64,000 nt of DNA from Mobula hypostoma (Eukaryota): assembly GCF_963921235.1 (NCBI RefSeq), contig NC_086097.1, positions 124,188,001 through 124,252,000 of the forward strand, in the 5' to 3' direction. The notes under the pieces were generated by a model that was given only the letters and a program-made list of their open reading frames with translations, did no database searches and was not told where the DNA came from. Position 1 is the first letter of the stretch; every line of letters begins with the position of its first letter. The position numbers were made by a program, and so were the translations under genes. Below are positions 3,226 to 61,753 of this stretch, piece after piece.

Positions 3226-3419
3226 TACTATTTTAATTAAACCAAACTTTTGCACATTATAAGAATACTCAACGTTTGATTTTAATTGAATTTATTTTTA
3301 GATATGCTTCTTACAGTCACCCTGTTAGGCAAACCAGCTTGCAAACAAATGTATAAATACCAAACCAAGCATATGCAACATATTGTAACTGGCACTAGTG
3401 TTCTAAAGCTTAAAGAAAA

Positions 3420-4383
3420 TTTTAAAAGATTGCAACTTGTTTTTTATTCTTAAGGATAAAATTTCAATTATCAACATGGCAACATAAACCAAATACACAC
3501 TGTATAATGCACAAAACATACTTTCATATAAGAAATTGATTTTGCATTTAAGTGAAATTCAACAGTGCATCTTTTAGCCGAGATTGCCTTTGAGTTTTAT
3601 TAGTGTCTCGGTCCATCCAGGAGGAAAAGGCTATGGTCTTTACCTCTCTTTAATGCTTCAAAGCAATGTGCAAAATTCTGCACTGTGCTTTCAATCTGTA
3701 ACAAACTGCATTAGCAGCAATCATCCACTATGAATACTTCCTTTTTCAGAACAAGGAACCAGTTAAAATAGTTACGCAAAATAGTTTCTAAAGCCTGAGT
3801 ATTGTCTTTGGTAGGCTAATAAAGGGTTATATCTTAAGATCATTTATTCATTATTCACAATTTTCATCCATTTTGTTAGCATTCTTCTGTGGTATACTGT
3901 GGTCAAAGCATTTTTTTTTTGAGAAGTATAAACATATCCTCAAATAAAGCAGGTATTAAATGTATTTTCCAAAAGGCACCAGGAAACAGTGAAGGAGAAT
4001 GGGTCAGTCAATCTTCAATCATAGAATAGCCACAGTCAAGAACACAGTTTTTTGAACAACTGTCAACTGATTTCTGCTTGCATTTTGAGATGTCTCCAAG
4101 TTCAGCTACATATGCTTCACACGTCACCTTCTCGGCCAATGTTACTGTCTGATAGATGCAACTCTTCTCCCAACCTTTAGAAATTGAACTGGTTAGCTGG
4201 GAGCAGATCAGTAACAACACTTAACCCTAACACCTACACCTTTTGACCTTCAAAATCCATGATCTTGTTGATTAATAAGCACCAGTTTCAATCAGTTATT
4301 AGTTTTCTTTTATATTAATCAGCATATAACTGTTAGCAGAACTGATTAGTGCCATTTATGATACAAACTGCAGCAGTGAAAGA
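3420..4383 (-). other. RNF19A: RNF19A 3' UTR (approximate extent)
   Basis: About 1 kb of repeat-free, AU/U-rich (minus strand) sequence after the stop codon; repeats resume below about 3220. Confidence 0.6.
3443..3448 (-). promoter_or_regulatory. Candidate polyadenylation signal AATAAA for RNF19A
   Basis: Plus-strand tttatt at 3443-3448, at the end of the U-rich UTR. Alternative hexamers lie at 3291-3296, 3596-3601 and 3843-3848. Confidence 0.45.
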
Positions 4384-6662: not shown

Positions 6663-7611
6663 AATCTATTGCATTTAAAATGTACCCCAGGTTATTTCTC
6701 ATAAGCCTTATTCAGAATGGAAAGATATTGTAGTTCCACATGGATAGTCAGACTACAACTTATTGCTATTAGACTGGTTCTGTATTTACCAAAAGTGTTA
6801 GAAATGCAGATATTTCCTCTCTGGAAAAGTATAAAGTTTCAAAAAAGAGTAGTGGTTCAACTATGAAACTGAAGCCAACATTAGCAGTGGGACAAAAATA
6901 TATCCAAAAATTAAAAGAAAAGGAGATTCCATACGAGAGAATTTTGAGTCTGGAGCTGCCCTGGTCAGGTCCCTTTGTGTGTCAATCCTATCACCCCAAA
7001 GTTACAAAAGCTGCTTTTTTCAGAGCATCACACACAAAATGCTGGTGGAACTCAGCAAGTCAGTTAGCATCTATCAGCAGATCCTGCCTGACCTGCTGAG
7101 TTCCTCCAGCAGTTTGTATGTTTGCTTTGAATTGCAACATCCGCAGAATCTCTTGTGTTTATGATTTCAGTTTCAAAGTATAGAACTTCATTTTGATGAG
7201 CCTTAACTTTTTTAAAAAAAAAATGACTAACATAATGGAAAGCGGCAAGGCCAGCAATTTAAGGATTATACTCAGAAGTATTTTATAAATGTCAGTACGT
7301 GCAAGACCACAGCTGGCTGTATCATTTGCAACTAGTCTGTGATGCAACTTCCACTGTTTTCACACTGTGGAAGGTTGAAACGCACATTTCACCTACATTT
7401 CTCAACTCAATATCAGCACTTTTGAACTAGCCACAAGGCTCACCAAGCCCACAGAGTAGAATTCAGCTGCCAAAATCCTGTACTGAAGTGACTGCTTTCA
7501 AAGTCAGAGTAAATTCATTATCAAATGACAATGACATATATGTCACTGTATACTATCCTGAGTTTCATTTTCTTGTGGACATTCACAAAGAAATAATAGA
7601 ATGAAAAACTA

Positions 7612-11220: not shown

Positions 11221-13388
11221 AGAAAGGCCTAGAGTGGACATGGAGGGGATGTTTTCAAAAGTGACCTTACCCTTAATTGACCATATTATTCAACTTTCAT
11301 CTAAATGGTTTCCATTATATTTAACTTTGATTGGTCGTATTAATGCAGTTAAGATGTTTTTTCTGCCAAAATTTTTATATATATTTCAGGCATTACCGAT
11401 TTCTGTTCCAAAATCTTTTTTTGATAAAGTTGACTCAAAAATTTCTTCATTTATTTGGCAAAATAAAAACCCAAGACTGGGTAAAATACATTTACAGAAA
11501 GCTAAGACAGATGGAGGTTTAGCATTACCTAACTTTAGATTCTATTATTGGGCAATTAATATTAGACATATGAAATTTTGGTTACTTGACCAGGATATAC
11601 TATCCATTCCTAAATGGGTAGCATAGGAATTACAATCTGTTCAGGGCTATACACTTGGCTCTATTTTAGGTTCCTCTCTTCCTTTTGATTTGAAACGCCT
11701 CAAACAGGTCTCTAACCCGATAGTTAAATATACCTTACGTATTTGGTTTCAATTCAGAAAATTTTTTGATCTTAACCAATTTGGGTTAGCGATTCCCATT
11801 TTAGGTAACATATTTTTTCCTCCCTCTTTCACAGATCGTGCTTTTCAAATTTGGAAGACTAAGGGTATTTCACGGTTTTTGGATTTATTTTTAGATGGTT
11901 CCCTTATGTCTTTTGAACAATTATCTAATAAATATAACTTATCAAGAATACATTTTTTTAGATATCTACAAGTTAGAAATTTCCTAAGTACTATACTTTC
12001 TTCCTTTCCAATGCTTCCTCCTACATATATTTTAGATACTATAATTAACCTTAATCCATGTCAGAAAGGTGCATCGGCTATGATTTATAATATTATTACG
12101 AAATTTAGGAAAACTCCATTTGATAAGATTAGGGTAGATTGGGAACAGGAATCGGGTTCTATCATTTCTGTGGATGACTGGGGGTAGATTTTAGTCAATT
12201 AGTCAATACTTCCTCTATCTGTGCTAAACATTCCCTAATTCAATTTAAAGTTGTTCATAGAGCACATATGTCCAAAGATAAATTAGCTCGTTTTTATTCT
12301 CATATTAATCCTTTTTGTGATAGATGTCCGGGGCAGATAGCCTCTTTAACTCATATGTTTTGGTCTTGTCCTACTCTGGAAACTTTTTGGAGAGACATTT
12401 TTAATATTATCTCAAAGGTATTGAATATAGATATCTCTCCTCACCCTATTACTGCTATCTTTGGATTACCTAAAATTTCCAATAATCTTTCTCCTTCAGC
12501 CCGTAGAATGATTGCATTTCTTACTTTAATGGCGAAAAGATGTATCTTACAACATTGGAAAGAGCTTAATGCTCCAACCACCTTTTTTTGGTTTTCTCAG
12601 ATGATATTATGCTTGAATTTGGAGAAAATTAGAAGCAATCTCTATGATTCCTCACTTAAATTTGAACAGACCTGGAGATCTTTTATTCAATATTTTCATT
12701 TAATGTAATTTTTTTTTCTTCTCTTTTTGGCTCCATATTTATATTCCCTTCTTGTTTTTTTTTACTGTTTTTAATGGAGGTCGGGTTTGAGGACGTGATT
12801 TTAAGTTCTTTAACTCTACTTGGTTCCAAGTTAGCCCATTGCTTTGCTTTTAGTTTTGTTGCATGGTGGGTTTTTTTTGGTTTTTTTTTTCCTTTTCTAT
12901 ATATATATATATATATAAATTAGTATACTATTATGTTACCTTATTATGTTATGTTTAAATTACATTGTTTGTATCTTTCTTTATCTGTATTAATATCTCC
13001 TGTAATTTTATTATATTCTAACAGTGTATTAGTGCCTATATGGCTTACCCTTTTGTATACTTATTCAATAAAAAGATTTAAAAAGAAAGAAAAGAAAAGT
13101 GACCAGAGGACAGAGCCTTAGAATAGAAGAACATCCCTTTGGAATAAAGGTGAGGAGAATTTCTTTGGCTACAGCATGGTGAATCTGTGGAATTCATTGC
13201 CACAGGTAGCTGTGGAGGACAAGTCATTAGGTATATTTTAAAGCAGAGTTTGATAGTATTTTGATCAGTTAGGGCATCGAAGGTTATGAGAAGTCAGGAG
13301 AAAGGGGTAAAGAAGGATAATAAATCAGCCATAATGGAATGATGGAGCAGTGTCGATGGGGCAAATAGCCTAATTCTAATATGGTCTA
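11221..13388 (+). mobile_element. Old CR1 3' fragment interrupted by the L1
   Basis: aaaggcctagagtggacatggaggggatgtttt continues after the TSD as agaggacagagccttagaatagaagaacatcccttt... Confidence 0.75.
11267..13094 (+). mobile_element. 5'-truncated L1-clade LINE (ORF2 C-terminal part, 3' UTR, A-rich tail), inserted in a CR1 fragment
   Basis: LTLIGRINAVKMFFLPKFLYIFQALP, GGLALPNFRFYYWA and CCHC knuckle CDRC-x8-H-x4-C; AATAAA at 13067-13072; 10-bp TSD AAAAGTGACC at 11257-11266 and 13095-13104. Inactivated by TAG at 11624, TAG at 12185 and a frameshift near 12190. Confidence 0.93.
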
Positions 13389-14362: not shown

Positions 14363-14545
14363 TAACACACAAAATGCAACAGGTCAGGCAGCATCTATGG
14401 AAGGGATATGAAAAGAGTCAACAATTCGTCATGAATGGTTTCGGCCCTTTATTCCTTTCCATTGATGCTGCCTGACCTGCTGTGCCCCTTCACCATTCTG
14501 TGTGTGTTGCCCTGGACTTCCGGCATCTACAGATTCTCATGTTTC
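14363..14545. mobile_element. Old Penelope-derived palindromic element
   Basis: aacacacaaaatg..caggtcaggcagcatctatggaa ... ttccattgatgctgcctgacctgctg..tgtgtgttg, then tail ggcatctacagattctc. Confidence 0.6.
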
Positions 14546-16449
14546 TAATTCTTCATTATTTTGTGCTATAACTGGCCTATGCCCTGAGTGCTAGTTTTGT
14601 TAATGACCAGGCTTTTGTTATTTGCAAATACCCCACTTACAAACAGATTATATTAAAATCTGACTTTCTATTAGAGACCCAAAATGCACTAACATTTCTA
14701 ACACCTCTCAACAGTCATTCTTTTGAGTTCCACTTTCGTTTCTAATCAATGTCAACTAGGCAAAAGCATCAACAGCTGCACAATATGAAGTACGTTCAGA
14801 CACAAAGCAGCCACAGACACACCACACTCTGAAACTGTTGGTTGACAACCTAACACCAATGCAAATTTACAGAACATTTAGGATTTTAACAGCAAAAAAA
14901 ATACAGAAAAAAAATTAGCCAATAGTCTTCATTTTGACCACCACCTTGGCCACTTTGACCATATGTAACAGGGTCAAAACTCAGTACAGTATACCACTCT
15001 GTGATAGTTTAGAATGCTTTCAGACAACTCATATTGCAGATTCGTCAACTGTACCTTCTCCCTGATGGTAGTAAGGAGAAGTGGACATGTCCTAGATGTT
15101 GAGGCCCTTTATGATGGATGTCACCATCTTGAGGCATCGCATATTAAGATACTCCCGACGCTGGGGAGGCTACTACCTATAATGGAGCGGCTGAGTTTAC
15201 AACCCTCTGTAGCTTTTTCCGATCCAGTGCAGTGGCACCTACCAGACCTATGTCGAATGCTCTCCACAGTACATCTGTAGAAATTTGTTCAAGTCTTTGG
15301 AGACATTCCAAATCTGCACAAACTTCTAATGAAATCTAATCTCTGGCATGCTTCATAATTGTATCAATATGTTGAGCCCAGTATAGACCTTTAGAGATGT
15401 TGAATTCTGATCAGTACAAAGGATCCAATGAGCAAAACGTCCAACATCAGCAGAAAGGAAGAGTGACCTGTTAACTGGTCTTGGCTGAAAATTCCAACAT
15501 ATATTGCTAATGTCGATTTATAAGGAATTTATCTGAGGACTAGGAATTCCCCACCACTGAAATCTATGGATGCTTGGTTCATGAGAAGACTAAAGACTTG
15601 AAACAATAGATGCTGAGAAACGAGAGCTAATGGAAATTGGTACCAAGTCAAAACAGAGAAATGATGTTCTTCCTTATACTGTGTATTGCTGGAACATAGT
15701 ACAACACCCTTCACTAAAGCTACCCAATGATAAATTGCTCCTCAGATTATAAACAAGAGATTCTGCAGACGCTGGAACTCCAGAGAAAAACACACACACA
15801 AAATGACGTAGGTATTCAACGGAGAGGAATAAACAGCTGACATTTCAGGTTGAGCCCTGACGAAGAGACTACGCCCAAAAAGTTGACCCTTATTCCCCTC
15901 CTTAGATACTGCCTGACCTTCTGAGTCACTTCAACACTCTGTGTGTATTGCACCTTAGGCTATTGTGGAAGCAGCTCCTAGATGACTGCTCTTGGACAAA
16001 CCAGGGAGGGAAGCACGACACTGAGCACTGATTTGCAGATCTCCTGTGGTGGAAGGATGTGGACCACTGCTGGAAAATAGCAGAACCTTTTTCATATGTT
16101 GGCAAATCACTCAGATCCTTCAGTCCCTCATCACTATCTGGTGAATATGATATCATCCCTCCCTCTCTCACACAGTGGGGAGAGCTAAGCAGCCAAGAGA
16201 TTCCACTATGGCAATTCGCTCAAAGGCTATCGATCACCCTATTCCCTTCACCCAAATCAACCCATTTTGGAATTAATATTAACAGCTTGTTTCCAACTTC
16301 TCAGATAATGGGGTGGACTAAATGGCAATTTGCGGATCTCAGAGCTGCACCCCTGGTGATCTGGCGAACATCTATTGCTAGATATTCCAATTAACATTCA
16401 GCAAGAGGTGGACTTTTGTGCAGACATAACCACAAGAGATTCTACAGAT

Positions 16450-16715
16450 AACAACACACATAAAAGTTGCTGGTGAACGCAGCAGGCCAGGCAGCATCTC
16501 TAGGAAGAGGTGCAGTCGACGTTTCAGGCCGAGACCCTTCGTCTGGACTAACTGAAGGAAGAATGAGTAACTCCTTCAGTTAGTCCTGACGAAGGGTCTG
16601 GGCCTGAAACGTCGACTGCACCTCTTCCTAGAGATGCTGCCCGGCCTGCTGCGTTCACCAGCAACTTCTATGTGTGTTGCTTGAATTTCCAGCATCTGCA
16701 GAATTCCTGTTGTTT
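16450..16715 (+). mobile_element. Young Penelope-derived palindromic non-autonomous retro-element, copy 1
   Basis: About 110-bp inverted arms around a 12-nt loop plus an unpaired tail ending ctgttgttt; 14-bp TSD GAGATTCTACAGAT at 16436-16449 and 16716-16729. Confidence 0.88.
16581..16618 (+). ncRNA. Minimal type I hammerhead ribozyme motif
   Basis: tagtc CTGACGA agggtctgggcct GAAAC GTC gactg: stem I agtc/gact, conserved core, palindromic ACGT stem III, GUC triplet. Confidence 0.6.
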
Positions 16716-18145
16716 GAGATTCTACAGATGCTGGAAATACACAGCAACAGGCACAAGATGCTGGAGGAACTCAGCAAGTCAGGCAGCATCTATGGAGAGG
16801 CACAAACAGTCAACATTTCAGATCGAGACCCTTCATCAGGACTGGAAAGGAAGGAAGAAGCGGAATAAGTGGGGGGCGGGGAGGAGAAGGAGTACAAATT
16901 GGCAAATGATAGGTGACACCAGGTGAGGGGAAAGGTGGGAATGAAGTGAGAAGCTGGGAGATGACAGATGGAAGAGGTAAAGGGCTGAAAATGGTATCAG
17001 TTAAGAGAGGAGAGTGGTCCATGGGAGAAAGAGAAGGAAGAGGGGCACCAGAGAAAGGTGATAGGCAGTTGTGGAGGAGGAGGAGTAAGAAGGGTGTCAG
17101 AATGGGGAATAGAAAAAGAGAGAAGGGAGAGGGGGAAGATATTACCAAAAATTGATGTTCATGCCATCAGGTCCGAGGCTCCCCAGATGGAACACAAGAT
17201 GTTGTTCAGTAAGTAACTCCATGTCAGCAATAAATGCTAATTATACACAAACGCTTTAATAATTATCCACTTGGTGTTCAAAATGCCCATCTAGACTGTT
17301 AACCAATACCAACCCTTGGTGGAACATGGTCATCCCTTTCACAATGGTGGTTAAAACAAAAATGCCAAAAGAACAAAGGTGCAGGTGGAAATAAGGTTTA
17401 AAAAAAAAAGGAAGGGGGCAGAAGGGAGAAATTACAAGTTAGAGAAATTGATGTGCCTGCTGCGTTCACCAGCAATTTTGATGTGTGTTGCTTGATGTGC
17501 ATGCTGTCAGGCTGGAGGCTGCCCAGACAGATTACGAGGTGTTGCTTCTCCACCTGAGCATCGCCCCATCATGACAGTACAGGAGCCCAAGGACCGACAT
17601 GTCAGAATGGGAATGAGAAGTGGAGTTAAAATGGGTGGCCACCAGGGAAGCCCACCTTTTGAGACAAACCGAGCAAACGGTGCTCAGTGCATGCATACAT
17701 TTTGCAAAGTAGAAATCCAGAACATTAGCACTGATACAAGCATTCATGGCTGCCTTGATATGGCAGCAGTTTTGCAGAGCAACTGAGGCATAGAAATGTA
17801 CTTCAAAAATCAGACAACTGGGTGCAACACATTCTTTTAAAGCCAAAACACTCCTTTTTTTGTATGAACACATTAGGTCTTTTCTTTTTTATTACTATGA
17901 ACATGGCAAATGAGGATGAGCTAAGTCATACCACTGCATTTCACTAAGTTATTCACTATTGATGTTTTACTGACAAAGACATGGGCACTCAAAGCCAGCA
18001 GCAGAGAAGGAAAAAAAAACACAAGTGTTCATTTCTGTGCAAATGCTTTCTTCCAGCTCCATATCTTAGAATCTAACATTTTAAGATTTAAAAATATACT
18101 TTAATCAAAGGAAAAAATGTTCTCTGTAAGTAAAATCATGAAACC

Positions 18146-22605: not shown

Positions 22606-22833
22606 ACAAACAAGAGAAAATCTGCAGCTGCTGGAAATCGAAGCAATACACACAAAATGCTGGAAGAACTCAGCAGGTCAGGCAGCATCTATGGAAAAAA
22701 TACAATATGAAATTTCAAAGACCTTAAAATCACAAAAAGTCCTGAAGGGTTTCAGTCTGAAGTGACCACTGTACTTTTCTCCCCCCATAGATGCTGCCTG
22801 GCCTGCTGAGTTCCTCCAGCATTTTGTATGTAT
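22606..22833. mobile_element. Old Penelope-derived palindromic element
   Basis: caaaatgctggaagaactcagcaggtcaggcagcatctatgg ... ccatagatgctgcctggcctgctgagttcctccagcattttg arms. Confidence 0.7.
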
Positions 22834-31640: not shown

Positions 31641-33492
31641 GAACTATCTAGCTGCATTTAATATCCATTCAAATTTCACCTGCCATTACTTCTCTTGAGC
31701 CTTCCACTGGGTGGCCTAGAAAACTATCCAATGCAGGGGAGACATTGATATTCAATGATAATGATAAATTTAAATTTAATATTGGTAGAATGTGGAACTG
31801 TTGATACAGCAGTGCAAATTACTTCAAAAGCAATGCTAGATGAACTAAGAATGGCAGACAGCTTGTGCGGACATGAACAATTAGGCTGTAAGGGCTGTTT
31901 CTAAGGTATGTTAAAATTTGAGATAAAGTTGCTGTTTAAAAGTGCTCTGGTAGATGTTAATTTAGAAAATGTACATTTTAATTGCAAGTGTATTGTAGCA
32001 GTTAAAGTTGCACTGATTCTTGAACTCTGCATTTCTGAATTTTCAGTCATGGGTGTAAACTAGGATAACTTGATAGAGGTGTTAACAAGATAATGAGGGG
32101 CATAGATCGAGTAGATAGCCAGAGACCTTTCACGCAAAGGCCTTGTTTTAAGGAGATTGCAGGAAAGTATATAGGGAGGACATAAGAGGCAAGTTTTTTT
32201 TTAAACAAATTGAGTGGGTGTGGTGGTAGATGCAGATATATTGAAGGCATTTAAAATAGGCACATGGATAATAGAAAAATGGAGGGGTATGTAGGATGGA
32301 AGGGTTAGATTGATCTAAGAGTAGATTAAAAGGTTGACACAACATTGTGGGAAAGAGCCTGTACTGTAATGTTCTAATGAGCATGTACTGTGTTGTGCTT
32401 TTTACATCTACTGCCTCATGATGATTGAGCTATCGCAAAAAAAAATTCAAGAAAGATTTTTCATGGTACTTATGACCACACAAGGATCTTCTGATCCACC
32501 TAACCCTACCACTCCTCCCCATCCAACACCTTCAATTCAATATTACCAGCTCAACTCTATTGCCCAACCAGATTGAACACTCATCCCAACAACTGGCTTG
32601 ACCTTGTCAATCAAATAGAATTGTCCAGACCTCCCAATAAGAGCTACTGGGTGGCTGGTGCAATGGCATCAACCACCTGATGTCCACATGATAAAATGTG
32701 CTCTCATCGCTGGATATGTCACGATTCAACAAGTACATTTCTAACTTGCAATGACATGGAAGCAATTTGGCTTGGAAAAACTAGCAGAAATTGCGAATAC
32801 CTGTAGCTTTTAAAGTGTGGTATTTTGATGGAACCATCTATAGAAAGAGCTAAACTCTGAAAAAATAACATATACACTTTTCCCAATTCAAAACTAACCT
32901 TGTTCTTTTGAACTCAGATCTGCAGCGATGTTTAATAAGTAACACACACAAAATGCTGGAAGAACTCAGCAGGTCGGGCAGAATCGAAGGAAAGGAAGGA
33001 AGAGTCGACGTTTCAGTTCCTAATGAAGGGTCCCGGCCCAAAAAATTGACTCTTGCCTAACCTACTGTGTTCCTCCAGCATCTTGTGTATGTTACTCTGG
33101 ATTTCCAGCATCTGCAGTTATTTTGCACGTAGCTATGATCTTGATTTCAGATGACAATAGACTAACCTATTTATGAATAGATGTAGGAATCCAGCTGCAA
33201 GCAAGGACATTCTCAAAATAAGCCATTTACAATAATTCCTGAAATAGTGATGTTCATACAAACACAACATGGACACTGTAAATTGGGATAACATCAAAGC
33301 AAGGAAAAGGTCCCATCTGAAGCACTGGTGCCAAAATAAAGTCCCCACCCCCACCCAAAGGAAGATTGTTAGAATCAATCAGGATAAAACCTATAGCTGG
33401 GTCATGGGCTGTTTGCGAAGAGAACGTAAATTTTTATCACCCCAAACTAGTCAACAATTGTAGAAACCACAATTAAAATACATTGTTATTAC

Positions 33493-33815
33493 CTGTCGAA
33501 CGAGATGGTAGAATTTGATTGACCAGCAGACTATTTATTTCAGGTAACCCCTTTCTTCCTGTAATCTCATCCTGAACGTATCTACGAAGTGTCCAGTTTT
33601 CTGTAGCCGTTGCTCCAGATTCTTGACTGTAGCTGATTGATGACGAACGCATTGTTCTTAGTCGTAAGCTCTGCGCTCTCTGTTGACGAGCAGCATCGCA
33701 AGTCTGATTCGGGTGCCATATTTGCTTACAGTGGTAACAGAACTCAGTACCACATCCTTCTCGGGCACAAGTCAGTTTTGGACAGCTGGCACAGCCAAAT
33801 GCTATCACTGCATAA
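33493..33815 (-). CDS. RNF19A: RNF19A coding exon 2 (IBR domain plus extended linker)
   Basis: Acceptor ttttgcag|T TAT GCA; encodes [69 protein letters not shown]. The first strong phase-1 donor is ACAG|gtaata at 33493/33492; this donor position is less certain than the rest. Confidence 0.88.
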
Positions 33816-34244
33816 CTGCAAAAGATAAAAATATACTGATTGTCTGCATAATAAATTCACTTTTGACCCCTTCTAGAGTGTAGTGGACATCAAAATCCTA
33901 TCAATAAATTATATGTACTAAAAAGTTTCCAGACTTCAAATGCTTAACTCATTCAGCAACATCATAAAAACCTCCAGGTTCATTTTTGCAAATTATCAAA
34001 ATGATAGCAAATAGGCTCTAGTAGTACACAATGTGTCAGTAATAGTTTTCTTCTCTCACATGGATGCTTTGTCACCTCATAAGTAAGCTCAGCATCTTAC
34101 TTTTCAGTCTCAACTTGTATAATCCAAAATCCATGTACTACACCAAATCCAAAGTGTTTGTATGCCTTATGCAAATTAAATCAGATAGCTGCATCTTTTT
34201 GCATGCTTCTCCAAGCTTCCTAAAGGCAGATAGGACAAAGAAGA

Positions 34245-42384: not shown

Positions 42385-42557
42385 ATGGGTACTTAATTTC
42401 CCCATAGAGGTTTGATAACATACTCAGAAATTTGAAAAGAACAATATTTGGAAACGTGGAAATGAAAGTTCGTGTAAATCAATTATCTCCTCTCCCTCCC
42501 CCCCCCCCCCCGCCCCCCACCACTCAGATAAACTTAAAATTAAATGTTTTTCCTTAC

Positions 42558-43144
42558 CCACAATCAGGAGCAGGGCACCATCTGCAGTCTGGATCTGCCA
42601 CCAACCAACGGCGTAGCATAAACTCCTCATATTTTTCCATCAGCAAATCATCGTTTAAAATCAATTGAATATCATGGGGATTGAATTTCTCAGTACACTC
42701 TGGGCAGCTTATATTAACCCTACTTTCCGAGATCTCAATTCGCAAGTACTGCCGCAAGCAATCTCCACATGACCTGTGGTGGCATGTCATAATGTCCGGG
42801 AATTTATCCTTAGGTTGACGCAAAAGGCACAGAGGGCATTCAAGAAAGTCTCCACTTTGTTTGTCAGTGGACATAGTCCCACTTTCAGACAAGCCACTGG
42901 TTGACAATATCGAGTTCTTGTCATTACAGATTTCGGAATGAATGCTTTCGATGCTTGCAATTCCATCAACTCCCCCATTTAAGTCCCTGGACTTTTGCTT
43001 TGACTCTCTTTTCCTTCGAAATAGAGATCCAAGTGACAGGCGACGTTTCTTTGGTGCCTTTTTAACTGAGGGTAAACTAACTGAGGATGCAGAGGACTGC
43101 AAGTCACGGTCTGAGTCTACTTGCTGATTGCGATGCAAGCTCAT
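42558..43144 (-). CDS. RNF19A: RNF19A coding exon 1 (start codon, RING1 and start of IBR)
   Basis: [21 protein letters not shown]...[48 protein letters not shown]...RWCPAPDCG. Donor TGTGG|gtaagg at 42558/42557. In-frame upstream TGA at 43163-43165. Probable acceptor ttctccttcacag| at 43304/43303. Confidence 0.96.
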
Positions 43145-43303
43145 TTTTCCTCCACACCTCTCTCAGAGGGTCCAGTCTTGGAAACCTGCTACAAACCAGT
43201 TTTCTTCCAAGCTCCAATCTTTTACAACATTCTCATTCTTCAGACATAGCCGCCCCTCAGGAGAATAGAAGGCAGTTTTCTAGAAAAATTGTTCTAAGAA
43301 TTT
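43145..43303 (-). other. RNF19A: RNF19A 5' UTR part of first coding exon, with two overlapping uORFs (MSEE* 43233-43247; MRML* 43222-43236)
   Basis: Polypyrimidine tract plus cag at 43304-43330; three upstream ATGs, each closed by a stop within a few codons. Confidence 0.7.
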
Positions 43304-50595: not shown

Positions 50596-52406
50596 CTCCT
50601 GAATCTCTAACATCAGATTATTGTCATTTTTTTTCTTTTCCAAAAAAGCTATTTTCTGTTTCCATTGTGCAGTCAATATTCAATTCCTGCTGAAATTGTC
50701 TCCTTTAAAGTACCATCTTTTACTTCTAGCTAGGTTTCTAATGGCTAATACATGATAATTTGTGCTTTTAGCTTGCTTGATTTCTTGTTATAACATGCAT
50801 TTAGGTGGCTCGTCTTGGCCTGCACTGTAATTCTCCTTTTTCTTATGGATTTTAAAAGATTGAAAACTGACAGCCATTCCTTTACAATGGATGTCAACAA
50901 GGAAAGTATGATCTTGTATTTATACGCAGTTTTTTCATGTGCTCTCAAAGTCTGGGCTACCAATTTAAATTTGCCTTGCACATAGAAAAATTACTTAAAA
51001 TCCTCCACCATATTCATACAGAAATGGATGGCAAGTTAATATAAAGATATTGGTGTGCTGTAGCAGACAGTACAGTTAACTTTACTGCAAAGAATGATCA
51101 ATTAATTTGTTTGGTAGGATTGATGAAAATAAAAGAACTGTATGCTCTTCTAAACACAAAAGAGCCATCTGTAAAGAACAGTTCTTCAGTTTAATACCCT
51201 GTCCACCCCCAATAAGGCTGCATAAATGTACCTTGCAAAACAAAACTGAATCTCAGAGTAACACCACTGAGCCAGGCAGTCACTTCTATCAGGAAAGAGA
51301 ACCCTGAGAAAAAGTTTTGCCAGAACTTCATGGAAAATAAAGTTTATCCTGTAAAATAATATTTGTTTCAAAATACAAAAGAATGTCTCAAACTGATAGA
51401 ACAGTATTGCAATTATACTTAACAGCATTCTGATCCCTTGAGGTCAGAGAACATAACTTTAAAGTTACAGTTACCTCTGATTACTTAAATCACTTAAAGA
51501 AAAATTAATCATTGCCTTTATAAACAGGTAGGCGTGTGTGGTGTACAGAGATAATTTTTTAAAATTGCAGGCTATTTCATGAAAATAGTGCAAAGTAAAA
51601 TTCTTACATTTGCTAAAATCTGTAAACTAAAGACCTAAACCACTTAAAAAGATAAAGAACCCTCAGTTATTTCCAATTTTTGTTAACTTTATAAATAAAA
51701 TTAGTTAGCATATTTATCTTAATAGGAATAGACCATTTGGCTCCTTATGACTTCACCGGCTTTCAAAGTCTACATTTATTATCAAAGTATGCATATGTCA
51801 CCGTGTACTACTTTGAGATACATTTCTTGCAGGCATTCATTGAAAAATAAAGAAATACAATCAAATTTTAAGATACGCACATAAAGAATGGCAATTAACC
51901 AATGCGCAAAAGGAACTGTGCAAATAAATTTTTAAAAATTAAAATATGAGCTGTAAAGTTTCCTTCAAAGTGAATCCGTAAGTTGTAGAATCAGTTCAGA
52001 GTTGTGATGAGTAAAGTTATCTACACTGGTTCAGGAACCTGACGACTATATGGTAACAACTGTTCTTGAACCTGGTGGTATGGGACCCAAGGCTCCAGTA
52101 CCTGCTGCTTGATGGTAGTAGGGAGAAGACAGCATGACCTGGGGTCCTTGATGGTCCATAAGCAGTCGATCTTCTACCTCAACACAATGTTTCTGAGCCA
52201 ATGCCATACCTCTGATTCCATTTACATCTACCTAATGTACTAACCTCTGCCTTGAACGTATTCAGTGAATAAGCATTCAGTCACTGAGGAAAGAATTCCA
52301 AACATTCATCAGCCTGTCCTGAATACCTAACTCCTTATAATGAAGCAACACACATAAAAGTTGCTGGTGAATGCAGCAGGCCAGGCAGCATCTCTAGGAA
52401 GAGGTG

Positions 52407-52444
52407 CAGTCGACGTTTCAGGCCGAGACCCTTCGTCAGGACTA
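52407..52444 (-). ncRNA. Minimal type I hammerhead ribozyme motif (left arm, RNF19A-sense strand)
   Basis: Exact reverse complement of 52475-52512. Confidence 0.62.
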
Positions 52445-52474
52445 ACTGAAGGAAGAGTGAGTAACTCCTTCAGT

Positions 52475-52512
52475 TAGTCCTGACGAAGGGTCTCGGCCTG
52501 AAACGTCGACTG
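52475..52512 (+). ncRNA. Minimal type I hammerhead ribozyme motif (right arm)
   Basis: tagtc CTGACGA agggtctcggcct GAAAC GTC gactg. Confidence 0.62.
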
Positions 52513-54149
52513 CACCTCTTCCTAGAGATGCTGCCTGGCCTGCTGCGTTCACCAGCAACTTTTATGTGTGTTGCTTGAATTTCCAGCATCTGCAGAATTC
52601 CTGTTGTTTCCTTATAATGAAACTAAGAGCCTTAGTTTGAGACGTGACATCAGATGAGATGGACCCCACATTTCTTTTGTCAGACCCTGAAAGACTATTG
52701 TATTATTCAATGAGATCAGCTCCAAAACTTGACAGTAGAGACCAGCCTGCATAGTTGCTCCAGTCCAGGAACCAACAAGCTGACCCAGTGATAGAGGAAG
52801 TGCAGCATTCTTAGGGTGGAGGACCAGATCCATGCAGTTGTAAGATGTGAATGCACCAGAGCAATACACAGCTTGAACATCTCTATTTTTGTACTCAATT
52901 CCTTTTGCAATAAGGGACAACAAACTTATACATCAACTTCTCGTGATTTATAAAACAACAGCCAGGTTTATTGAAACACCTTTCCAACTCCCCCTTTAGA
53001 CAACAAAGACCAGACAGCACTATAAAATCCTATTAAGCCCAGGTGCAAAACATAAATTCTTTCTTCTCTCAAATGACAGTCGAGCACATGCCACAATTCT
53101 AGTTCAAGTTTAAATGTGATTCGGCCTACACATGAATAAAGCCAAATGAAACAATATTCCTCCGAGGCCAAGGTGCACAACACAGTACCAACACCACACA
53201 AAGTTACGATCGCAGAAAAAATCATGCAGTCTAGAAAATATAGCCCTAGTCCCCAAGTGTCATGGCCTGTACATTGGCGCTGTATAGGCTGTTGCCCTGG
53301 AGCTGCGTTTCTGCAAGAACAAGCCTGCAGCAGTTCCTCATCATGCGATAGTGCAGCCACAGATGAATGCAATCTAGATTGTTTGCCATTGAGCAAACAC
53401 TGGAGGCCAGCACTAACAGGAGGGGGCCAGCACCCAACCCAGTGCGGAATCTAACAGTGCCTCTGCTCTCTCCCACATCGCCTCCATTAAAAGTTTACAG
53501 TTAAAAGCGAACTTTGGAATAATACTCAAATTAGTTTATCATTCAATTTTGGAACATTGAATTCCTTTTTGCTTAACAATCTTCAGCACATCCAGTACTA
53601 AATCATATAAGTGTTGTAATGTCTTGTCTGTTCCTTTCACTTCCCTGCAGAACTCCTATGCAATTGAAAACTGAAACTTAGCTCATGCTGCGATTACCAG
53701 GCATTTTATTTACGTAATGCAGTTTCACAATACACAAGAGTCCAGGACAAAGAAGCAGGCAGGAAAAATCATAGCGGACACTATCCACCTAGCAAACTGA
53801 CTTTTCCAAAGCTCCCCCAGAAAGCGCAAAAGGGCTATTAAAACAAAAACTTCATGCCATTTTAAGTTTGTTCTCTCCAGCAGTTAATTTGATCTACCAT
53901 TCTAGTTAGCCAACCCCACCCCCTCTCTCTATTACCTCAGTCACTGCACTGTAAACACTTTAACCAGCTTTTTACAATGCTGTTTACATTGTAAATACAT
54001 GATGGCATGTATTCATGCACATTTTATTCCAAACCTGTACTTTAACTAACTTTACTTTTATGTAATTATTTTACTCTTTATAATTGTTGAAAATTGTTTC
54101 TCATTGCATGTCATGCCAACATACAACAAATTGCTAATACATGTTGATT

Positions 54150-57422: not shown

Positions 57423-57612
57423 ACAAAATGCTGGAAGAACTCTACAGGTCAGGCATCTACGGAGAGGAATAAACAGTAAATGTTTCGGGCTGAGATTGGG
57501 TTTCAGCCTGAAACATTCACTCTTTATTCCTCTCCATAGATGCTGCCTGACCTGTTGAGTTCCTCCAGCATTTCGTATACGTTGCTCTGGATTTCCAGCA
57601 TCTGCAGACTCT
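57423..57612. mobile_element. Old Penelope-derived palindromic element
   Basis: aaatgctggaagaactc..caggtcaggcatctacggagaggaataaa ... tttattcctctccatagatgctgcctgacctgttgagttcctccagcattt plus tail. Confidence 0.7.
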
Positions 57613-59458: not shown

Positions 59459-60727
59459 ACTCTAAGAGGGCATGTCCTGGGTGGTAGAGGTCCTTCCTGA
59501 TGGTTGCCACCTTCTTGAGGCATCACCTTTTGAAGATGTCCTCGATGCTGGGGGAGGCTGGTACCCATGATGCAGCTGCTGAGCCTGTGACCTTCTGCAG
59601 GTCTTTCCAATCCTGTGCAGTGGCCCCTCCATACCAGATGGTGATGCAACCAGTTAGAATGCTCCCCATGGTACATCTGTTGAAATCTGCCAGCATCCTT
59701 GGTGATGTACTCCAAATCAAATATAGCCACTGCCCTACTTTTTCCCTCAACTGCACAATATGATGGGACTAGGACAGAAAGTCAGAGATATTGATACCAA
59801 ACTTGAAATTGCTCACCTCTTCCACTTCTGATCCCTCGATGAGGACTAGTGTGTGTGTTCCCTTGACTTCTCCTTCCTGAAGTCCACATTCAGTACCTTG
59901 GTTTTACTGACGATGAGTGCACGGTGTTGCTCCGACCCGACTCAACCTGATCTGTCATTCCTTTTCACCTCCTCGTCTCCATCTGAAATTCTGCCAATAG
60001 TTGTGTCATTGGCAAATTTATAGAGGGTGTGAGCTGCGCTTAGCCACACAATCATGGGTGAAAAGAGAGCAGCGCAGTGCGCTAAGCACACATCCTTGAG
60101 GTACGGCCAGTGTTGACTGTTAGTGAGGAAGAGATGTTATTTCCAGTCAGCAAAGACTATGGTCTCCCAATGAGGAAGTCAAGGATCCAGTTGCAGAGGG
60201 AAGTACAGAACCCAAGTTTTAGAGCTTTTTGATTAGATCTGAGAGCATGATTGTGTTGAACGCTGAGCTGTAGTCAGTAAACAGCAGCCTGACACAAATA
60301 CTCCTATTGTACAGGTGATCCAAGGCCGAGTGTAGAGCCAGTGAGATTACATTTGCTCTATACCTATCGTGGCAATAGGCAAATTGCAGTGGATCCAGGT
60401 TCTTGTTTAGGCAAGAGTTGATTCTGGCCAGGACCAGCCTCTGAAAGCACTTCATCACAGAGGATGAGAGTGCCACTGGGCAATAATTATTGAAGCAGCT
60501 CATCTGCTCTTCTTGGGCACTGTTTATGATTGTTGCCCTTTTGAAGCAGGTTGGAACCTCCGACTACAGCAGTGAGAGATTGAAAATGTCCTTGAACACT
60601 CCCGCCAGTTGGTTGACTCAGGTTTTCAGAGCTCTACCAGGTACACCATCAGGGGTTGACGCTTTGCAAGGGTTCACCCTCTTGAAAGATGTTCTGACAT
60701 TGGTGTCAAAGACAGATCACAAACATT

Positions 60728-61753
60728 GCGGTGACTAGTGGGGTACCGCAAGGCTCAGTGCTGGGACCCCAGTTGTTTACAATATATATTAATGACTTGG
60801 ATGAGGGAATTAAATGCAGCATCTCCAAGTTTGCGGATGACACGAAGCTGGGTGGCAGTGTTAGCAGTGAGGAGGATGCTAAGAGGATGCAGGGTGACTT
60901 GGATAGGTTGGGTGAGTGGGCAAACTCATGGCAGATGCAATTTAATGTGGATAAATGTGAAGTTATCCACTTTGGTGGCAAAAATAGGAAAACAGATTAT
61001 TATCTGAATGGTGGCCGATTAGGAAAAGGGGAGGTGCAACGAGACCTGGGTGTCATTATACACCAGTCATTGAAAGTGGGCATGCAGGTACAGCAGGCGG
61101 TGAAAAAGGCGAACGGTATGCTGGCATTTATAGCGAGAGGATTTGAGTACAGGAGCAGGGAGGTACTACTGCAGTTGTACAAGGCCTTGGTGAGACCACA
61201 CCTGGAGTATTGTGTGCAGTTTTGGTCCCCTAATCTGAGGAAAGACATCTTTTCCATAGAGGGAGTACAAAGAAGGTTCACCAGATTGATTCCTGGGATG
61301 GCAGGTCTTTCATATGAAGAAAGACTGGATGAACTGGGCTTGTACTCGTTGGAATTTAGAAGATTGAGGGGGGATCTGATTGAAACGTATAAGATCCTAA
61401 AGGGATTGGACAGGCTAGATGCAGGAAGATTGTTCCCGATGTTGGGGAGGTCCAGAACGAGGGGTCACAGTTTGAGGATAGAGGGGAAGCCTTTTAGGAC
61501 CGAGATTAGGAAAAACTTCTTCACACAGAGAGTGGTGAATCTGTGGAATTCTCTGCCACAGCAAACTGTTGAGGCCAGTTCATTAGCTATGTTTAAAAGG
61601 AAGTTAGATATGGCTCTTGTGGCTACAGGGATCAGGGGGTATGGAGGGAAGGCTGGGTTCTGAGTTGGATGATCAGCCATGATCATAATAAATGGCGGTG
61701 CAGGCTCGAAGGGCCGAATGGCCTACTCCTGCACCTATTTTCTATGTTTCTAT
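60728..61753 (+). mobile_element. Young 5'-truncated CR1 LINE (same subfamily as 473-2183)
   Basis: 310-aa open frame matches the C-terminal part of the 572-2128 ORF except for 3 residues; tail tttctatgtttctat. Confidence 0.95.

Follow-up and report, generated by a model that had tools for sequence, protein, structure and literature searches.

The window analysed here, 64,000 nucleotides of Mobula hypostoma DNA (contig NC_086097.1, positions 124,188,001 to 124,252,000), carries on its minus strand a gene for a RING-IBR-RING E3 ligase, which we take to be RNF19A-like. The gene extends over 4387-43162, with nine coding stretches (near 42557-43162, 33476-33856, 30.6k, 27.0k, 19.1k, 14.1k, 11.0k, 8.7k and 5.0k) and a transmembrane exon. 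Two short palindromic repeats lie in the same gene region. Copy 1 (16450-16715, plus strand) is flanked by the 19.1k and 14.1k exons. On one side of copy 2 is the first coding exon and on the other a CpG island ~24 kb past the window end, a position that would place copy 2 in intron 1 of the E3 ligase gene.

A preliminary description of this DNA had reported two near-identical copies with inverted arms of about 110 bp, a 12-nt loop, an unpaired tail and long, differing target-site duplications (TSDs), and this anatomy was confirmed. Over 264 nt, the sequences at 16452-16715 and 52346-52609 differ at 6 bases (98% identity). The arms of copy 2 (52343-52453 and 52466-52576) measure 111 nt and are 99% identical, those of copy 1 (16452-16559 and 16572-16679) measure 108 nt and are 96% identical, and the hairpin fold has a z score of -31 against 200 shuffles. 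Both copies possess an unpaired, one-sided tail of 33 nt that terminates at the same base (52577-52609, plus strand, in copy 2). Copy 1 is bounded by a 14-bp TSD (16436-16449 and 16716-16729), and copy 2 by one of 12-13 bp (52332/3-52344 and 52609/10-52621; taken as 52332-52344 and 52610-52621), its length depending on one ambiguous T and on two final bases that also fit the arm. Copy 1 landed in the tip of an older Penelope-like element (PLE) 3' end: its left TSD is the terminal 14 nt of that end, and the right TSD together with the remainder of the end occupies 16716-16858 on the minus strand, 75% identical to the young family. The older PLE with copy 1 at its tip can be followed over 16716-17642, and three stubs elsewhere in the genome (L029, L146 and L151) also lie in or beside older PLE ends.

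The 12-nt loop is present in both copies with one substitution; however, it is not a designed loop, but the left arm continuing into the sequence of its parent. Positions 3389-3510 of the parent unit align with 52464-52343 of the window, so that the apparent loop of copy 2 (52454-52465, minus strand) is simply the last 12 nt of an inverted arm running over 52343-52465. This inverted arm (minus strand) corresponds to a PLE 3' end without its tail, approximately -156 to -34 from the tail end, and the sense arm (52466-52576, plus strand) begins at parent position -144. Likewise, the copies had been said to lack coding capacity, which is true of the stub, although the element whose end it represents does code for protein.

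Both copies represent the 3' end of an autonomous PLE that is abundant in the genome, inserted head to head in short form, and the Penelope origin proposed earlier is upheld by the same ends being found on copies that encode reverse transcriptase (RT) and a GIY-YIG domain. Genome-wide, the last 37 nt have 25,238 exact matches; for 26 nt lying immediately 5' of the hammerhead the count is 29,519, while the reversed control sequences of both have zero genome matches. Arm lengths are continuous from 100 bp to 2.7 kb, the longest arms reaching into an RT/endonuclease ORF. The ORF of locus L110 (679 aa) contains an RT, a C-X4-C-xx-C finger and a GIY-YIG domain; YIDD and GIY-YIG-type residues are visible, and Pfam detects RVT_1 (E=2.5e-5) and GIY-YIG (E=6e-4), both below the curated cut-offs. 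Locus L117 is a 3.5-kb unit in partial tandem, with the tail running on into the 5' part of the ORF, and the focal arms are 94-97% identical to the end of this unit. The features of an endonuclease-bearing (EN+) PLE are thus present: an RT parent with a C-terminal GIY-YIG domain, direct and inverted pseudo-LTRs, partial tandems, a 30-40 bp tail and a hammerhead motif. The available text of PMC8557442 defines Neptune/Nematis by a CX2-5CxxC finger between RT and EN, and the L110 ORF resembles the elements described there in its RT, finger and C-terminal GIY-YIG with CCHH; in contrast to them, no microsatellite targeting is evident in the TSDs listed here. By its motifs, the family would accordingly be an endonuclease-bearing PLE of Neptune/Nematis type, with the choice between Neptune and Nematis turning on motif and vertebrate host. 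Private divergence is ~1%, supporting the claim of recent activity. Reads from four sequencing runs left the unique flank of copy 1 uncovered, and four runs compared with a pLTR-ORF stretch marked neither a start nor an end there, none of the joints listed being of splice type.

To assess how ordinary this shape is, exact tail matches were taken in order of position from contig C1 until 70 had been collected (0-6.1 Mb), and 68 of them were mapped after removal of L084, the other end of L083, and L104, a 40-nt piece of a complex locus. An inverted arm is present in 44 of the 68 mapped copies, 28 of which are palindromes of at most 320 bp with varied centres; 16 copies are short direct stubs. 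TSDs of at least 10 bp were found at 56 of the 70 loci, 48 of them 13-15 bp long. The preliminary description had inferred a fixed 3' end; the two focal copies do end at the same base, but the end of the family is only roughly fixed: of 56 TSD-bounded copies, 44 agree to within 2 nt and the other 12 reach 4-11 nt farther out. Relative to the tail end, most inverted arms begin 27-46 nt farther in. At the other extremity, the 114 arm 5' ends, taken from BLAST and blurred by microhomology, comprise 39 long and 75 short ones. Of the short ones, 45 cluster immediately 5' of the hammerhead, at -150 to -121. Only 5 of the 75 fall in the bin of the cleavage site (-102), and hammerhead cleavage was rejected as the cause of arm length. 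What we take to be a branch-point-like motif, a pyrimidine run followed by AG, and an initiator-like TCAGTT lie at family positions -156 to -132 (52454-52478 in copy 2), just 5' of the hammerhead, and either kind of candidate signal could set the common arm end. An intron in Drosophila virilis ends at hammerhead helix I, according to the available text of PMC4209133.

The two arms of one copy agree at subfamily sites far above independence (for example 31 of 38, versus 14.7 expected). This agreement argues against arms drawn from unrelated RNAs as a rule, although later homogenisation within the hairpin could also cause it. In L143, L144 and L151, private changes are symmetric in both arms, consistent with one template for both or with conversion within the hairpin. 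One locus of another kind, L083/L084 (L108:377-4061), is a 3.7-kb inverted copy with a tail at both ends, at which no TSD was found.

A minimal type I hammerhead had been described in each arm. The motif scan supports such a motif, and it is present in three of the four arms, although on opposite strands within each copy. In the sense arm of copy 2 (52476-52511, plus strand) it has a 4-bp stem I, a short stem II and no stem III loop; the inverted arm of copy 2 carries it at 52408-52443 on the minus strand, which is the strand of the host gene, and the sense arm of copy 1 at 16582-16617 (plus strand) with one change in the loop II region. The motif in the inverted arm of copy 1 (16514-16549, minus strand) is broken, with the core CAGACGA, and was missed by the scan. 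Because the motif is readable on one strand per arm, any transcript contains one motif together with its full antisense copy. Folding of the full-length transcript gave a pairing probability of 0.9997 over the hammerhead, the sense arm being paired with the other arm. The hammerhead is therefore predicted to be an inherited passenger, inactive within the hairpin. Rfam returned no hammerhead match at E<=1; its miRNA and U6 matches scored below the gathering thresholds and were rejected, those to miRNAs falling on older hairpin stubs, two of which, both two-armed, give such false matches. The minimal metazoan PLE hammerheads described in the accessible part of PMC4209133 likewise lack a helix III loop, possess palindromic bases there and have an extra base before stem II; they are reported to need a dimer and to show low activity. 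The stub motifs lie on opposite strands, and so, unlike those hammerheads, they would form no dimer within one transcript.

Target-primed reverse transcription, rather than cut-and-paste, had been proposed as the mode of insertion, and the asymmetric ends, TSDs of 10-17 bp and RT-coding parent all support it. In the scheme that we envisage, the endonuclease would make a staggered cut and each DNA end would prime reverse transcription; one start would lie at the tail end and the other ~33-38 nt inside, and the two short cDNAs would be joined end to end. This combination of staggered cut, double priming and cDNA joining very probably builds the palindrome. Since two primed cDNAs would be joined at each insertion, the palindrome would normally be made anew at every landing. 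Template switching between inverted arms is also said to occur and could blur the arms later. An in vitro study of PAc (Poseidon of Anolis; PMC11167929), in the portion available, reports that both strands are cut and extended, that two RNA-internal RT starts bound the tail and that hammerhead cleavage is dispensable. The two starts bounding the tail and the extension of both strands are like those inferred here, albeit in another clade, and the accessible text of that paper presents no model of inverted copies or their junctions. For PLE inverted copies, the consulted part of PMC3846280 gives a further proposed model, antisense self-priming.

The general layout is known. An inverted, 5'-truncated copy, a one-sided tail of 30-40 bp and a TSD are described for PLE insertions in the available sections of PMC8557442 and PMC3846280. 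Pen2a of Adineta, in the accessible text of PMC3846280, resembles the present stubs in its inverted truncated copy, one-sided tail, TSD, hammerhead in the terminal repeat and partial tandems (as in L117). By comparison with what that text states, the ray family has tens of thousands of copies, ~40% of which are palindromes of at most 320 bp, and TSDs of 13-15 bp versus 8-10 bp. The element is ordinary for its class, and what sets the focal pair apart is a local twin.

Allowing one differing base, the focal junction pattern has two matches in 3.48 Gb, both in the window. Exact matching for the junction would miss decayed copies; a complete list of 21 loci with the same gap length nevertheless contained no further copy of it, and the focal centre was absent from 23 other best BLAST loci with a readable centre (one of 24 went unread). 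The two copies are 36 kb apart, and the chance that two of two genome matches lie so close is ~2e-5. In addition, all four focal arms carry the minority variant -47T, with an extra change beside it in the right arm of copy 1. This variant was present in 3 of 65 scored sample copies and has 5,287 exact genome hits, compared with 25,238 for the tail, which corresponds to ~5-20% of the family. The unique shared junction and the minority subfamily support the common origin that had been claimed for the two copies, and the pair is almost certainly related. Segmental duplication was rejected as its source, the flanks being unrelated. Because the centre is unique in the genome and the copies are only 36 kb apart, one was likely copied locally from the other.

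If stubs are occasionally copied locally, other neighbours should share centres. A full listing of loci with 12-16 nt between two fixed arm motifs yielded 115 loci (of 309 with gaps of 4-17), with 84 distinct junctions, 69 of them singletons. With the focal pair left out (113 stubs), an exactly shared junction was found in 5 of 20 pairs within 5 Mb, versus 0.27 expected from label shuffles (p ~3e-5), in 2 of 7 within 1 Mb (0.09 expected) and in 6 of 67 within 25 Mb (0.9 expected); junction classes were labelled by eye, and the distance cut-off was picked after the lists had been seen. We aligned all five near pairs, a third member with one mismatch, and distant controls. The flanks were unlike in all aligned near pairs, and near twins with their own TSDs comprised a pair on C21 (4.8 Mb), a triple on C2 (0.4-2.2 Mb) with an odd insert of 14 nt, and a pair on C52 (0.9 Mb), a third copy of whose junction occurs on C5. 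The right end of L148 is interrupted, and L146, in one near pair, is nested in an older copy and has no clear TSD. The pair at 120.1 and 123.3 Mb on C1 probably arose by chance, as its two members differ in subfamily and its junction was seen 11 times. Segmental duplication accounts for L207 and for L026/L027.

A further pair, L177/L199 (C1, 1.9 Mb apart), has a junction with exactly two genome matches and shares a rare left-arm variant seen in 5 of 335 arms examined; as it was found within the 6-Mb sample, its nearness is partly a product of selection. A second junction class, read in the first 100 of 856 loci, showed no excess sharing (2 pairs versus 1.2 expected within 1 Mb; 7 versus 6.2 within 5 Mb, the motivating pair left out), and its two pairs within 100 kb were one tandem duplication and one common junction. 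Recurrent junctions dominate this class, so that local copies making up a few per cent would easily go unnoticed. None of its seven other two-member classes lay within 5 Mb, and two were at 15 Mb. An odd 12-nt junction, present in 2 of the 100 listed loci, is common to L209 and L210, which lie 15.4 Mb from each other on C1 and differ at a subfamily site in both arms. Overall, we consider it probable that local sharing is a general effect, real and rare.

Which process produced the twins is a more finely balanced matter. In the route that we narrowly favour for the focal pair, at about an even chance, a stub is re-copied, the source being a transcript made locally. An RNA that reads across an old stub, probably the pre-mRNA of the host gene, would act as template for one or both of the primed DNA ends at a site not far away, and would bring the old junction into an insertion bounded by a TSD of its own. 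Within the host pre-mRNA, the arm without the tail is in sense orientation. Reverse transcription primed on it would preserve the order of left arm, loop and right arm, and the tail end would need to come from a second RNA. The whole-arm sharing to within ~12 nt of the end, the kept loop direction and the common host gene speak for re-copying, and L142 and L199, in which the left arm and junction are common and the right side is not, fit a second RNA for the tail. The available text of PMC3846280 further reports that PLEs can move intron-bearing (unspliced) host sequence in trans. Against re-copying, most twins are megabases apart, beyond the reach of one transcript, and with its sense arm paired with the other arm (0.9997) a stub transcript would be a poor template. 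As to the pair as a whole, we lean towards the reading that both copies are head-to-head PLE 3' stubs and that one was likely copied locally, probably by the enzyme of the element from the transcript of its neighbour. More tentatively, and with a little less than even confidence, we suggest that the enzyme re-inserts still-local RNA through an old stub at distances of kilobases to megabases, sometimes with a second RNA for the tail end. If so, a retroelement would hop locally and stubs would not all be dead ends; junction twins would form a genome-wide record of nuclear two-template insertion, which would also fit the intron retention of PLEs.

The strongest competitor, which we regard as possible though less likely than not, is ectopic gene conversion, in which a break at the palindrome tip, or an open insertion gap, would be repaired from the nearest similar stub. 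Distance-dependent conversion between repeats is established, and hairpin-forming inverted repeats reportedly induce breaks. Conversion would need no copying through a 111-bp RNA duplex, and twins at megabase distances and in both orientations accord with it, as does partial sharing: L142 is unlike its twins in the tail and right arm, L199 is unlike in the right arm at -97, and L009/L011 carry -47T in opposite arms. The last pair fits neither re-copying nor conversion cleanly. On the other hand, sharing in the focal pair extends as far as -47T, a site ~100 nt away from the centre in either arm and, in the left arm, ~12 nt short of the outer end, and twins mostly share the entire subfamily haplotype. 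Moreover, all 6 clear near comparisons with a rare junction agreed in loop direction relative to the tail, even though palindromes could pair up in both orientations; of the 7 distant comparisons 4 agreed, a weak contrast scored by eye.

The preliminary description had instead seen a master template feeding copies with the focal loop, that is, a non-autonomous palindromic unit, retrozyme-like and MITE-shaped, spreading via RNA. The finding of one centre in two near-identical copies, each with a TSD of its own, would suit such a master, and non-autonomous PLE derivatives exist according to the accessible parts of PMC8557442 and bioRxiv 2026.07.22.740005. It had also stated beforehand that a lack of other copies sharing the loop would speak against it, and the genome holds two matches, both of them focal. 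The focal junction, occurring only twice, has given no amplified family; the centres of other stubs differ (69 of 84 are singletons), no tandem units were seen, and arm lengths continue into the ORF. A master is thus largely refuted and very unlikely. Nor are the copies a new ribozyme-bearing mini-element or parasite, since they are 3' stubs of an autonomous PLE whose palindrome and tail layout has been published. Non-LTR retrozymes (bioRxiv 10.64898/2026.07.22.740005), as presented in the text available, are likewise non-coding, PLE-derived and equipped with a type I hammerhead, but in them direct units are arrayed in tandem and one strand carries two or more motifs; here there is a single inverted pair with one motif per strand and no amplified family of fixed structure.

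That two independent insertions coincidentally acquired one junction, or did so through sequence-driven end joining, is more improbable still: some junctions do recur widely, one 11 times in 27 loci and another 14 times in 100, but the focal junction occurs nowhere else, and its 36-kb proximity and shared minority subfamily argue against coincidence. A DNA MITE moved by a cut-and-paste transposase, suggested by the long inverted arms and small size, is refuted by asymmetric ends rather than symmetric terminal inverted repeats with a fixed short TSD, by TSDs of 10-17 bp, by a variable left start and right end, and by identity to an RT-coding element.

The focal pair bears on how PLEs make inverted copies, from which RNA and where, questions treated in the consulted parts of PMC8557442, PMC3846280 and PMC11167929. 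The available text of the EN+ PLE accounts (PMC3846280 and PMC8557442) does not mention twins that lie near each other and share a junction, and among the papers listed by literature searches outside subscription journals none referred to junction twins in its title or the opening lines of its abstract. Stub junctions serve as natural barcodes, and near twins with separate TSDs let genomes alone test local template capture against ectopic conversion; either answer bears on the evolution of thousands of intronic hairpins in this lineage. Editing of the hairpin by ADAR in host pre-mRNA was considered for the private changes of copy 1, 2 of 5 of which fit against a background of 10 in 84 (probability ~0.11 by hand), and is unsupported.

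The window contains several other repeats. Older, diverged two-armed stubs of related PLE families lie at 7020-7121, 14375-14532, 15757-15946, 22638-22831, 32934-33117 and 57423-57607. A young RT-coding LINE-like element is represented by two pieces of 1,026 nt (482-1507 and 60728-61753), inverted with respect to each other, 99% identical and 59 kb apart in the same gene region; Pfam RVT_1 was detected at 575-2221 on the minus strand and at 60698-61660 on the plus strand. A zf-RVT fragment of another LINE is located at 12178-12705.
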